A stretch of 64,000 nt of DNA from Promethearchaeota archaeon (GTDB taxonomy: Archaea; Asgardarchaeota; Lokiarchaeia; Sigyniarchaeales; SOKP01): positions 589,285 to 653,284 of the forward strand of contig JAHPZA010000009.1 in assembly GCA_019058445.1 (NCBI GenBank). The letters are read 5' to 3'. The notes under the pieces were generated by a model, which did not search any database, was not told where the DNA came from, and saw only the letters and a list, made by a program, of their open reading frames with translations. This document shows, piece by piece, positions 17,071-19,113 of the stretch. The position numbers and the translations under genes are program-made. Each line of letters begins with the position of its first letter. Position 1 is the first letter of the stretch.

Positions 17071-19002
17071 CTAAATATCTAATAGATTTACTTCATCATA
17101 ATTTTCAATGACAAATTTCTTTCTCGGCAAAGACTCTCGACCCATCAATTTTGTAAAAATGAGGTCATTTTCTAAATAGTCTTCGTAGGTAATTTTCTTT
17201 AAAAAACGTGTGTCTCGGTTCATGGTTGTTTCATAAAGTTCATCAGGATTCATTTCACCTAATCCCTTATATCTCTGGACTTTAATAGAATCAGTCTTTT
17301 TTAAGGAATATTTCTTTATTAATTCTTGAAAAATTTTATCTTTTTCATTATCAGTGTATACATAATGCTTAGTCTTCTTATATTTAACTTGAAAAAGCGG
17401 AGGTACTGCCACATAAAGATGCCCCTCATCAATAAGAGGCCGCATATATCTAAAGAAAAATGTTAATAAGAGAGTTTTAATATGATGGCCATCTGAATCT
17501 GCATCGCAAAATATTATAATTTTGTGATAACGTAAATTTTTTAAATTAAAATCTTCTTCTCCCTCTCCATTTTCACCATTATGTTCAGATGTTCCATTAG
17601 TATCATTTACTCCTTGAATTCCAATTCCAACTGCTTTAATTATAGCGAGGATCTCATTATTTTGTAATATTTTATCCATTCTTGCTTTTTCAACATTTAA
17701 TATTTTTCCTCGGAGAGGAAGTATTGCTTGATAACTTCTATCTCTTCCTTGTTTGGCTGAACCACCTGCTGAATCGCCTTCTACAATAAATAATTCACAT
17801 TCTTCGGGATTATTTGAAGAACAATCAGCAAGTTTTCCGGGCATACGTGCACTATCTAATTCAGATTTTCTACGGATTAATGATCTAGCTTTTTGAGCTG
17901 CTTCCCTCGCCGTTTTAGCATTAATGGTCTTTAATATGATCTTTTTGGCAGTCTGGGGATTTTCTTCAAAAAATTGATATAACTTTTCTGTAATTATTTG
18001 ACTTACAAATTGTCGAATTTCAGGATTTCCTAATTTAATTTTTGTTTGGCTCTCAAATTGAGGATCAGGAAGTTTAACAGAAATTACTGCCGATAATCCT
18101 TCCCGGGTATCACTTCCACTGAGCACATGATCTTTATACTTTTTCTCCATATCCTTTTCGATGTAAGAATTCAAAGTTCGAGTGAGTGCTGATTTAAATC
18201 CAGTTAGGTGTGTACCACCCTCAATGGTATTTATAGTATTTGCATATGTGAGAATATTAGATTGGTATCCTTGATTATATTGCAATGCGACATCCACATA
18301 TACCTTAGAATCCTTTTCAAAAGGATATTCATCGCTTAAAGAAATAATTTCATTATGCAGGGGCTTTTTATCTCTGTTAAGAAAAGTAATAAACTCCTTG
18401 AGTCCCCCTTCGTAATGAAATTCTTCCCCTTCTTCAGTATTTTCATTGTAGATTTCGAATTTTGCTTGAGGTGTTAAAAATCCAAGTTCTCGCATTCGAC
18501 CTGCGATTGTAGAGAAGTTAAAAATATTATTCTCATCTTCTATATCAAAAATTTCCTTGTCTGGATAAAACGTAATTGCTGTACCTTTCTTTTTATTCTT
18601 AAGTTCTTTTATTTCCGGTTCTGTTGTTTTCACGCCTCTTGAAAACTTTTGCTTATAATACACATTATCTCTATAAATTTCTACTACTAACCATTCCGTT
18701 AATGCATTCACAACAGAAAGACCAACGCCATGCAATCCACCGGAAATCTTATAACTTTTACTGTCAAATTTGCCTCCGCTATGTAGATGTTCCATAATCA
18801 CTTCAACAGCAGGTTTTTTATATTCTGGATGCATGTCAATAGGTATTCCGCGCCCGTTGTCAGAAATCTGTACTGAATTATCTTTATTAAAAACAACTTC
18901 TATCTTATCTGCGAAGCCAGCCATGGCTTCATCAACACAATTATCAAGAACTTCAAAAATGAGATGGTGGAGACCTTTTTTTCCGGTATCGCCTATATAC
19001 AT
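17071..19002 (-). CDS. gyrB: DNA gyrase subunit B, main uninterrupted ORF (begins at the Met of the conserved RKRPxMYIG motif)
   Basis: MYIGDTGKKGLHHLIFEVLDNCVDEAMAG (GHKL ATPase N-box), the TOPRIM motifs ELFIVEGDSAGGSAKQGRD and IIIFCDADSDGHHI, and the C-terminal QRYKGLGEMNP are all present. The true N-terminal arm is encoded upstream (see features at 19018-19113). Confidence 0.95.
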   Translation of the reverse strand: MYIGDTGKKGLHHLIFEVLDNCVDEAMAGFADKIEVVFNKDNSVQISDNGRGIPIDMHPEYKKPAVEVIMEHLHSGGKFDSKSYKISGGLHGVGLSVVNALTEWLVVEIYRDNVYYKQKFSRGVKTTEPEIKELKNKKKGTAITFYPDKEIFDIEDENNIFNFSTIAGRMRELGFLTPQAKFEIYNENTEEGEEFHYEGGLKEFITFLNRDKKPLHNEIISLSDEYPFEKDSKVYVDVALQYNQGYQSNILTYANTINTIEGGTHLTGFKSALTRTLNSYIEKDMEKKYKDHVLSGSDTREGLSAVISVKLPDPQFESQTKIKLGNPEIRQFVSQIITEKLYQFFEENPQTAKKIILKTINAKTAREAAQKARSLIRRKSELDSARMPGKLADCSSNNPEECELFIVEGDSAGGSAKQGRDRSYQAILPLRGKILNVEKARMDKILQNNEILAIIKAVGIGIQGVNDTNGTSEHNGENGEGEEDFNLKNLRYHKIIIFCDADSDGHHIKTLLLTFFFRYMRPLIDEGHLYVAVPPLFQVKYKKTKHYVYTDNEKDKIFQELIKKYSLKKTDSIKVQRYKGLGEMNPDELYETTMNRDTRFLKKITYEDYLENDLIFTKLMGRESLPRKKFVIENYDEVNLLDI

Positions 19003-19017
19003 TGCGGGTCTCTTTCT

Positions 19018-19047
19018 TTAGCGATCTTCCATGATTTATGAAAGGTT
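19018..19047 (-). other. 30-nt in-frame intervening sequence with two TAA codons, splitting the gyrB N-terminus
   Basis: The minus strand reads ...GGC GTA | AAC CTT TCA TAA ATC ATG GAA GAT CGC TAA | AGA AAG AGA CCC GCA ATG... Removing these 30 nt restores the contiguous GLEGV-RKRPAMYIG motif. Confidence 0.75.
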
Positions 19048-19113
19048 TACGCCTTCGAGACCCTTTAAAACTTGTATATCTTCAGCATCATAACTATCGG
19101 GGGGGTCAGTCAT
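19048..19113 (-). CDS. gyrB: gyrB N-terminal arm segment (22 codons: [22 protein letters not shown]), detached from the main ORF
   Basis: Starts at ATG 19113 and is in the same frame as the main ORF. [16 protein letters not shown] matches E. coli GyrB [16 protein letters not shown]. Confidence 0.8.

Follow-up and report, generated by a model that had tools for sequence, protein, structure and literature searches.

The gyrB locus described here raises the question of how an archaeon could make a complete GyrB protein from a gene whose reading frame is closed by two stop codons shortly after its start. The locus lies in a 64-kb stretch of DNA (the window, meaning the whole stretch analysed) from an Asgard archaeon, and its closest gyrB loci are those of Promethearchaeota metagenome-assembled genomes, at 88–90% amino-acid identity. 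Asgard archaea are the nearest prokaryotic relatives of eukaryotes, and an actin homologue and an Arf/Ras-like GTPase are also encoded in the window. Our analysis suggests, with a probability that we put at about 0.8, that the gyrB pre-mRNA contains an intron of the archaeal endonuclease type, namely the 30 nt from 19047 to 19018.

The gene is read from the minus strand, and the initial annotation, which had described 22 codons, an in-frame 30-nt insert with two TAA codons and a main ORF, was reproduced exactly. Exon 1 (19048–19113) consists of ATG(19113) and 21 further codons and encodes the N-terminal arm of GyrB; that ATG is the sole start codon from the upstream in-frame stop up to this point. 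The putative intron (19018–19047; AACCTTTCATAAATCATGGAAGATCGCTAA / AACCUUUCAUAAAUCAUGGAAGAUCGCUAA) reads NLS-stop-IMEDR-stop in the exon-1 frame. Exon 2 (17071–19017) begins with RKRPAMYIGDT and ends with the stop codon. In gene calls its start is placed at Met 19002, which gives a 643-aa ORF (17071–19002; P0001) with all four GyrB Pfam domains. The gyrA gene (14593–17028), on the same strand and in the same operon, is directly downstream and intact, as had been reported. Removal of the insert gives a predicted product of 670 aa that can be aligned from end to end with intron-less relatives and reads GLEGV-RKRPAMYIGDT across the junction (peptide region GLEGVR/KRPAMYIGDTGK). The rejoined N-terminus aligned with solved GyrB structures (6enh and 1kij) with no gap at the junction (E about 1e-63), which bears out the earlier view that the GyrB N-terminus is contiguous once the insert is removed. 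Moving the cuts one base either way leaves the product unchanged, since A residues flank the intron.

A comparison of the 5' regions of related gyrB genes had been proposed at the outset, and it revealed that the insert is conserved: 25 further distinct sequences carry it at the identical codon boundary, making 26 distinct Asgard sequences from independent assemblies, including that of the window. The insert was found between GV and R(K/R)RP in 6 of 24 Asgard species representatives, and a pattern scan of metagenomes yielded 19 loci, representing 18 distinct sequences. These 18 were retrieved with a pattern that required GGCGTA, so that conservation of the 5' strand of the central helix H described below is partly by design; the 3' strand of H and all other pairs are unaffected by the search pattern. 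Protein look-ups gave 6 further insert-bearing contigs, which the set of 26 leaves out. The insert is absent from most other Asgard gyrB genes and from every bacterial or euryarchaeal gyrB retrieved. Its length is 30 nt in 13 sequences, 31 nt in 3, 33 nt in 4 and 53 nt in 6, and in 10 of the 26 it is not a multiple of three (31 or 53 nt). The exon-1 frame meets a stop within 1–9 codons in all 26, and a single lineage has both 30- and 31-nt inserts between nearly identical exons.

The predicted RNA fold at this site in the window has a minimum free energy (MFE) of −20.7 kcal/mol (z = −3.76 against shuffles), and most of the 26 sequences were folded by RNAfold into this architecture. All of its elements are on the minus strand. 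The outer helix h, which the initial annotation had recognized, joins GGGUCUC of the exon-1 Gly-Leu codons (19057–19063) to GAGACCC of the exon-2 Arg-Pro codons (19006–19012) in the MFE fold. The central helix H pairs GGCG (19050–19053), the last exon-1 bases before the bulge, with CGCU (19020–19023) near the 3' end of the intron. This helix had been missed, and it leaves a canonical 3-nt 5' bulge, UAA (19047–19049), in place of the bulge of about 13 nt described before. The intron helix h' and its loop occupy 19024–19046, with a stem of 19038–19044 and 19026–19032 closing the loop AAAUC (19033–19037). In the comparative structure as well as in the MFE and centroid folds, the UUUC at 19040–19043 pairs within this hairpin, and not, as first thought, with GAAA at 19013–19016. 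On the 3' side, AAAGAAA (19013–19019) lies opposite GAA (19054–19056) in a 3x7 internal loop; in an RNAalifold alternative, a 2-bp closure (UC/GA) makes this a 3x3 loop. The predicted 5' cut falls between 19048 and 19047, and the 3' splice site 2 nt past H, between 19018 and 19017.

The family fold, with an outer exon-exon helix, a 4-bp GGCG/CGYY helix, a UAA or UAU bulge and an intron hairpin, is shared by all 26 sequences. The bulge, unpaired in the predicted folds, has the sequence UAA in 19 cases and UAU in 7. Three pairs of H are retained in every sequence and the fourth in 22. The h' pair adjoining the bulge is retained in 25 of the 26, with the A-U changed to G-C in L082 and to U-A in L111, and several of the 30-nt inserts, that of the window among them, have a mismatch at the second h' pair. 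The 3' loop strand begins with AAA in 20 of the 26. Fixed cuts at GGCGUA/N...NN/N (slashes mark the cuts) restore IQVLKGL(E/D)GVR(K/R/L)RPAMYIG throughout the set. A central 4-bp helix, a 3-nt 5' bulge closed by h' and cuts that would give a functional ligated product are thus all present, as in a bulge-helix-bulge (BHB) substrate. In a strict hBHBh' motif, the 3' cut would lie in a 3-nt bulge closed directly by h, whereas here it lies in an internal loop. As modelled, the motif is a relaxed BHB of the HBh' or bulge-helix-loop (BHL) type. The earlier description of a relaxed, non-canonical BHB therefore stands for the 3' site, while the 5' site is nearer to canonical than it had seemed. The non-canonical 3' site suggests that cleavage would depend on a broad-specificity enzyme.

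Substitutions in these helices are consistent with selection for pairing. In an alignment of the 20 short-class sequences (A1), 93.6% of the cells were paired, compared with 35–44% when the partners were slid, and the covariation score was 0.322, compared with at most 0.10 for slid partners; nine pairs had changed on both sides. In 500 shuffles, the observed value was reached by none on four of five measures and by one on the fifth. Within A1, 95% of the H cells were paired, and helices 3 and 4 (h') were paired at 87% and 97%, with six pairs changed on both sides. In the 53-nt class (A2), pairing was 100% in H and 90% in h', and an extra hairpin showed compensatory changes. The initial annotation had held that covariation-free flanks would argue against a structured insert; the paired changes in A1, above the slid controls, show that the flanks do covary.

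The outer helix is built from codons, and the comparison with intron-less genes is informative for this reason. The pair between the synonymous third positions of Gly and Arg in h is formed in 25 of the 26 intron-bearing sequences (U-A 10, G-C 7, C-G 7, U-G 1) and in only 1 of 15 intron-less Asgard genes, and two neighbouring pairs in h are formed in 19/26 versus 3/15 and 18/26 versus 2/15. These sequence comparisons indicate that the outer helix is selected only where the intron is present. The exons also vary as coding sequence does. In the last 10 codons of exon 1 (n = 26), third positions vary in 8 of 10 codons, first positions in 2 and second positions in none, which suggests purifying selection on the coding sequence and agrees with the first impression that the detached N-terminal arm is still conserved. 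At the start of exon 2, third positions vary in 8 of the first 9 codons, including those of RKRPA, upstream of the called start.

These results favor the mini-intron that had been listed as the first candidate explanation. We infer that cutting and joining occur at the RNA level, and the geometry of the fold and the literature point to EndA and RtcB as the enzymes. In the proposed mechanism, EndA, the tRNA-splicing endonuclease, would make the 5' cut behind the second base of the bulge and the 3' cut two bases beyond the 4-bp helix. An RtcB-type ligase would then join GGCGUA to AGAAAG, giving an mRNA with a continuous gyrB of 670 codons, and the freed intron would probably be circular. Asgard EndA has been reported as an (alpha-beta)2 enzyme with an L1 loop (PMC5829648), and according to published work the Asgard-type splicing endonuclease accepts relaxed BHB substrates. 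Genes for EndA and RtcB are absent from the 64-kb window. Since 66 nt of coding sequence precede the intron, translating ribosomes could compete with folding.

The best-surviving alternative, although an unlikely one, is a split or truncated gene without splicing, in which GyrB would begin at Met 19002 or, in some relatives, at an intronic AUG, the N-terminal arm would be missing, and exon 1 would be a separate 25-aa peptide or nothing. Gene callers output just such proteins: P0001 is the 643-aa ORF, and P0003 and P0005 begin with MRSRQRKRPAMY at the intronic AUG. With two separate ORFs, moreover, the length and frame of the insert would not matter. However, this reading leaves unexplained the coding selection on exon 1, the three covarying helices placed so that canonical cuts restore the frame in 26 of 26 sequences, and the outer-helix complementarity that occurs only with the insert (25/26 versus 1/15). 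RKRPA, which in the window lies between the last stop of the insert and the Met, is conserved as protein across the 26 and would be untranslatable without the junction. The truncated GyrB from Met 19002 suggested in the initial annotation is thus opposed both by the conservation of exon 1 and the RKRPA codons and by the covarying helices.

It is slightly less probable still that an RNA intron is removed by an enzyme other than EndA and RtcB, or that the insert is excised at the DNA level. The identity of the enzymes is drawn from geometry and literature, the 3' site is non-canonical, and the intron-less alleles L155 and P0002, described below, could in principle be products of DNA excision. 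However, a 4-bp helix, a 3-nt bulge and cuts 2 nt past the helix on each strand form the specific signature of an EndA substrate; the insert matches no ribozyme family; and repeats or recombinase features are absent from its flanks.

We consider translational bypassing of the type known from phage T4 gene 60 to be improbable, a little more so than the foregoing. The two genes are alike in that an untranslated gap with a hairpin interrupts the gene of a type II topoisomerase subunit, and bypassing of such a short gap would be compatible with lengths that are not multiples of three. In gyrB, however, exon 1 ends with GUA in all 26 sequences, and the triplet before the landing site is UAA, CAA, UAC, UAG or UUA, never a Val codon; the absence of matched take-off and landing codons, observed at first in one genome, thus holds throughout. 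After GUA comes a sense codon and not a stop, again in 26/26, so that the codon requirements of gene 60 are not found in any member. Furthermore, the conserved structure joins exon 1 both to the insert's 3' end and to exon 2, and a ribosome at the take-off site would have melted it; this pairing, which spans both exons, also sets gyrB apart from gene 60.

A pseudogene, a strain-specific lesion, an assembly error or double stop-codon readthrough, which could be suggested to a reader of a single genome by the two TAA codons in the frame of a gene that is intact in other respects, is very improbable, since 26 distinct sequences of independent assemblies have an insert at this one site, its structure conserved and the exons intact, and since 10 of the 26 inserts, those of 31 and 53 nt, shift the frame and make readthrough impossible for the family as a whole. 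An intein was rejected because every insert contains stops and 10 of the 26 lengths are not multiples of three, as was a group I or group II intron, for which 30 nt is far too small to hold a ribozyme core and no Rfam match was found.

A covariance model built from the intron only had its sole match in the window at the gyrB site (53.2 bits, E 3.6e-10; next best 15.8 bits), and over 345 kb of related Asgard loci it matched gyrB introns only. An Rfam scan of the window gave nothing at the gathering score, with only chance-level matches in 18800–19300 (E >= 0.5, well below gathering scores), and a tRNA scan of the window gave nothing. A 12-nt intron-core pattern matched the window 4 times, where chance would give 2.5. 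Our own crude scan for H, bulge and h' motifs whose removal would join ORFs, which is too strict to recover the gyrB intron, gave 17 matches, against 27 and 19 in frame-shifted controls, and thus showed no enrichment.

The nearest known system is the cbf5 pre-mRNA intron of Crenarchaeota (Desulfurococcales and Sulfolobales; Watanabe 2002, Yoshinari 2006, Yokobori 2009, PMC2738675), and the best reading of the gyrB intron is as another case of this kind. The cbf5 intron has been attributed to a hetero-oligomeric splicing endonuclease of broad specificity, and its patchy distribution to gain and losses (PMC2738675). In contrast to cbf5, the gyrB intron interrupts another gene in another phylum, the Asgard archaea, 22 codons from the start codon; its presence varies among near-identical alleles, with evidence of spread by a recombination tract; and its splicing is inferred here from sequence comparison. 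The gyrB gene itself was acquired by archaea from bacteria (PMC9348778). We found no described gyrB intron or Asgard mRNA intron in the literature, and a dedicated paper on gyrase in Archaea leaves introns unmentioned.

The gyrB intron also resembles the BHB introns of archaeal tRNA and rRNA, including the HBh', hBH and BHL types, in its 4-bp helix, 3-nt bulge, helix-symmetric cuts and intron-internal helix. Non-canonical introns are reported to be abundant in the tRNA genes of Asgard archaea (PMC11291895). In contrast to these, the gyrB substrate would be an mRNA without a tRNA body, its 3' site lies in an internal loop, and its exon-exon helix, being made of codons, would be maintained through synonymous sites. 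A further likeness is to the splicing of XBP1/HAC1 mRNA by IRE1 in eukaryotes, which is also independent of the spliceosome and removes a very short intron from within a coding sequence. The XBP1 intron is 26 nt long, and a structure-specific endonuclease acts before joining by a tRNA ligase (RtcB). IRE1, however, recognizes paired 7-nt stem-loops and not a BHB, and to our knowledge it is absent from Archaea.

Intron-less alleles close to intron-bearing ones were identified. P0002, on a 12.7-kb syntenic contig (JGI), encodes an intron-less GyrB of 670 aa that is 91% identical to the predicted product and has the same N-terminus. L155, a Logan contig of 2,122 nt that may derive from cDNA or DNA (run SRR26215706; its sister contigs come from other runs), is intron-less and 97% identical to the intron-bearing L003 and L035, with zero mismatches in about 90 nt on each side of the place where the intron would be inserted. 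The sequence at this junction, GGCGTA/AGAAAACGCCCC, agrees exactly with the prediction. Comparison of alleles at 97–99% identity indicates that presence of the intron varies among near-identical lineages, and in one case at least, the gain seems to have come about through homologous recombination, with exon 1 and the intron on a short tract.

A more general idea, which we hold only tentatively, is that the mini-intron is mobile: a tract of about 130–150 nt would recombine between lineages, flanking synonymous sites would be co-converted with it, and loss would occur by precise deletion. Such a tract would reach from the end of the 5' UTR through exon 1 and the intron into the first exon-2 codons, and the co-converted synonymous sites would be those that build the intron's own splice helix. 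If this is true, gyrB would be the first case in which horizontal gain of a protein-coding BHB intron can be demonstrated, and it would come from the archaeal lineage that is closest to eukaryotes.

This study also bears on annotation. Public annotations of intron-bearing gyrB genes are wrong, in that the called start lies at the intron or within it and the N-terminal arm is lost. In E. coli GyrB, this arm contributes to the ATP site of the partner subunit. Introns of this kind should be allowed for in gene finding on Asgard genomes, where other "truncated" gene calls may conceal further mRNA introns. In the literature searched, endonuclease-spliced introns in archaeal protein genes are essentially limited to cbf5 of some Crenarchaeota. 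A second well-supported case would show that interrupted protein genes arise in this way in the prokaryotic lineage closest to eukaryotes. It would also provide natural intron-plus and intron-minus alleles, at 97–99% identity, for the study of the gain, loss and cost of an mRNA intron in a setting where transcription and translation are coupled.

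Our analysis reproduced the initial annotation's minus-strand reading of gyrB: a first exon of 22 codons beginning with ATG (19113-19048), a 30-nt insert with two in-frame TAA codons (AACCTTTCATAAATCATGGAAGATCGCTAA, 19047-19018), and RKRPA codons leading into the main ORF, which gene finders start at Met 19002 and which runs to 17071 (643 aa). This ORF has four GyrB Pfam domains, and gyrA (14593-17028) is indeed intact downstream. Joining exon 1 to exon 2 (19017-17071) yields a 670-aa protein whose N-terminus aligns with solved GyrB structures without a gap over the junction (e.g., Thermus thermophilus 6enh and 1kij; E about 1e-63). 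Upstream, gyrB is adjoined by a divergently transcribed ORF of 277 aa that encodes a methyl-accepting chemotaxis signalling domain (19646-20479, plus strand).

Within the GTDB species representatives, the gyrB loci closest to this one belong to Promethearchaeota (Asgard) metagenome-assembled genomes (88-90% amino-acid identity). The window also encodes an actin-family homologue (Pfam Actin, E 1e-51; 4590-5735, plus) and a small GTPase of the Arf/Ras-like type (11284-11901, plus), both of them eukaryotic signature proteins of a sort typically seen in Asgard archaea; therefore, the host is an Asgard archaeon. This identity matters because an (alpha-beta)2 splicing endonuclease bearing an L1 loop has been reported in Asgard archaea (PMC5829648). 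The window also holds possible defence/restriction loci, namely a CHAT-domain protein (5765-8260, plus), an Eco57I/MmeI-type restriction-modification methylase fusion (8961-11165, plus) and a separate N6/N4 DNA methylase (47154-48281, plus), as well as two long opposite-strand ORFs that overlap almost completely (26889-27680, minus, 263 aa, without a Pfam hit; 26908-27657, plus, 249 aa).

GTDB loci were retrieved by exon-2 peptides only, and the sequence upstream of each match was then translated in search of inserts. Among the Asgard representatives, 6 of 24 (L001-L003, L017, L019, L025) had one between GV and R(K/R)RP, and none occurred in the euryarchaeal and bacterial gyrB genes retrieved from GTDB and translated in the same way. 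A metagenome scan for GGCGTA, a gap and then PAMYIGD codons, in which GGCGTA was thus required by the search, gave 19 further Asgard loci in which this site carries an insert (18 distinct sequences, since L109 duplicates L092); the remaining hits, about 100, were bacterial gyrB genes with GGCGTA upstream by chance. Six more contigs from other samples, found through protein look-ups, lie outside the 26 distinct sequences from independent assemblies analysed here, the window included. In these 26, the insert measures 30 nt (13 sequences), 31 nt (3), 33 nt (4) or 53 nt (6), and 30- and 31-nt versions co-occur in one lineage with almost identical exons. The frame is shifted by 10 of the 26 inserts, and in each of the 26 the exon-1 frame meets a stop within 1-9 codons. 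Given these features and its recurrence at the same place, we conclude that the insert goes untranslated and that it represents a conserved, polymorphic feature, not the assembly error or isolated lesion that the initial annotation had considered.

Removal at GGCGUA/N...NN/N (slashes marking the cuts) yields IQVLKGL(E/D)GVR(K/R/L)RPAMYIG in all 26 sequences; in the window, moving both cuts by one base leaves the product identical because of the flanking A's. Among the last 10 codons of exon 1, variable positions comprise eight third, two first and no second positions; the first 9 codons of exon 2, within which RKRPA falls upstream of the called start, have eight, three and one, respectively. 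This pattern points to coding selection on both exons, RKRPA included; without joining of the exons, the window offers no way for RKRPA to be translated. Translational bypassing, proposed earlier, finds neither matched codons nor a stop after the take-off codon, and stop-codon readthrough fails on frame in the frameshifting homologues. A truncated or split GyrB made without joining, such as one starting from Met 19002, corresponds to the called ORF; however, it leaves both the conservation of RKRPA and the RNA helices unaccounted for. No ribozyme or other Rfam family matched the insert. In the window, a covariance model of the intron only picked out the gyrB site alone (53.2 bits, the next hit scoring 15.8), and in 345 kb of related loci its hits were all gyrB introns; across these sequences, the intron is gene-specific.

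RNAfold predicted one architecture for most of the 26 sequences, which in the window is both the minimum-free-energy and the centroid fold (-20.7 kcal/mol, 64% of the ensemble, z = -3.76). It comprises the outer exon-exon helix h (GGGUCUC, 19063-19057, with GAGACCC, 19012-19006), rightly recognized in the initial annotation; an internal loop (5' strand GAA, 19056-19054; 3' strand AAAGAAA, 19019-19013); a central 4-bp helix H (GGCG, 19053-19050, with CGCU, 19023-19020); a 3-nt bulge, UAA (19049-19047); and an intron hairpin h' with a stem and an AAAUC loop (19046-19024). The predicted cuts fall after the second bulge base on the 5' side and two bases past H on the 3' side, the positions expected for the tRNA-splicing endonuclease EndA on each strand of a BHB (bulge-helix-bulge) motif. 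This motif is defined in PMC5829648. Since UUUC belongs to the intron hairpin and H is present, the 5' site is predicted to be canonical, with H, the 3-nt bulge and then h'; the UUUC/GAAA helix and 13-nt 5' bulge proposed earlier, when H was overlooked, are incorrect. The 3' site would be relaxed, lying inside an internal loop of 3x7, reduced to 3x3 should UC/GA close it, as RNAalifold suggests. The modelled motif is of the HBh' or bulge-helix-loop kind and not a strict hBHBh'.

Formal covariation was counted on 20 short-class sequences, with partners slid by 1-3 columns and 500 shuffles as controls. Paired cells amounted to 93.6% vs 35-44% with slid partners, the covariation score was 0.322 vs <=0.10 in the control, and nine pairs changed on both sides; the observed value was reached by 0 of 500 shuffles on four of five measures and by 1 of 500 on the fifth. 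In the six 53-nt introns (L025, L041, L085, L093, L138, L149), H is 100% and h' 90% paired, and an extra GC-rich hairpin with compensatory changes (e.g., GCGCG-AUU-CGCGC, or GCAC...GUGC) produces a three-way junction inside the intron. Further, alignment-free counts were anchored on the splice sites. H paired in 26 of 26 sequences at three positions and in 22 at the fourth, its 5' strand GGCG being part of the metagenome search pattern; the bulge-adjacent h' pair was kept in 25, with changes from A-U to G-C and to U-A. The strands of h are Gly-Leu and Arg-Pro codons. The Gly third and Arg third positions pair in 25 of 26 intron-bearing genes (U-A 10, G-C 7, C-G 7, U-G 1) vs 1 of 15 intron-less Asgard genes, and the two neighbouring pairs in 19 vs 3 and 18 vs 2, respectively. 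These comparisons indicate that h is under selection only where the intron is present, a pattern that makes little sense unless the RNA helix plays a part in how the insert is handled.

Intron-less alleles also occur. P0002, a 670-aa GyrB 91% identical to that of the window, matches the predicted spliced product exactly at its N-terminus, and its 12.7-kb JGI contig shares neighbours with the window (F420 ligase, pterin-binding protein, gyrA). L155, a Logan contig (SRR26215706; 2,122 nt) with 97% nucleotide identity to intron-bearing L003 and L035, carries the exact predicted exon-exon junction near position 92, with zero mismatches for about 90 nt on each side of the insertion point. It is mRNA-sized, its first base lies 26 nt upstream of the gyrB ATG, and it may derive either from a spliced transcript or from a strain lacking the intron. 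On the GyrB tree, the intron has a scattered distribution among close relatives. The 31-nt-intron locus L111 is a mosaic (3024-3061 and flanks): over the sequence downstream of the junction, it shares 99.2% identity with intron-less L011, to which its promoter is also near-identical, and 95.3% with intron-less L015. The tract of 130 nt that holds its exon 1, intron and five codons shares only 66.7% with L011 and is closest to intron-bearing L017 (82.8%), the downstream coding sequence of which is only 80.8% identical; the divergent tract spans about 130-150 nt, from the end of the 5' UTR to five codons past the intron. The simplest reading of this one clear case is intron gain in this lineage through homologous recombination of a short tract, the flanks being co-converted. 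In other pairs of alleles with and without the intron, the local dip in identity is weaker. Intron-less L030 (junction GGGTCTTGAGGGCGTA/AGAAAAAGACCC) retains GGCGTA as well as the complementarity between Gly and Arg third positions that typifies intron-bearing genes, and may represent a recent precise loss.

Public calls of intron-bearing gyrB start at the post-intron Met or at an intronic AUG, as in 'MRSRQRKRPAMY' (P0003, P0005) and 'MRFRKRKRPAMY' (call set P0003, P0005, P0125), and exon 1 is called as a separate ORF of 21-38 aa (L156, 1-66; L159, 3-119). The N-terminal arm is therefore absent from the deposited GyrB proteins. The NCBI protein P0094 (1085 aa), an Asgard GyrB relative, has an intein-family Pfam hit (PF14890); thus, some Asgard gyrB genes carry an intein and others an RNA intron. 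A survey of archaeal gyrase excluded sequences with inteins and made no mention of introns (PMC9348778), and we found no description of a gyrB intron or of an Asgard mRNA intron in the literature searched.

The feature is real, conserved and structured. Comparative evidence makes a mini-intron, a candidate of the initial annotation with a partly wrong helix model, the best explanation, and we consider it probable (roughly 0.8) that the insert is removed from gyrB pre-mRNA by the splicing endonuclease. Desulfurococcales and Sulfolobales provide the closest precedent in their cbf5 pre-mRNA intron, which likewise has relaxed motifs, is attributed to a hetero-oligomeric endonuclease and has an inferred history of gain and losses (PMC2738675). 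The gyrB intron would thus represent a new gene and a new phylum for a known but very rare kind of intron.
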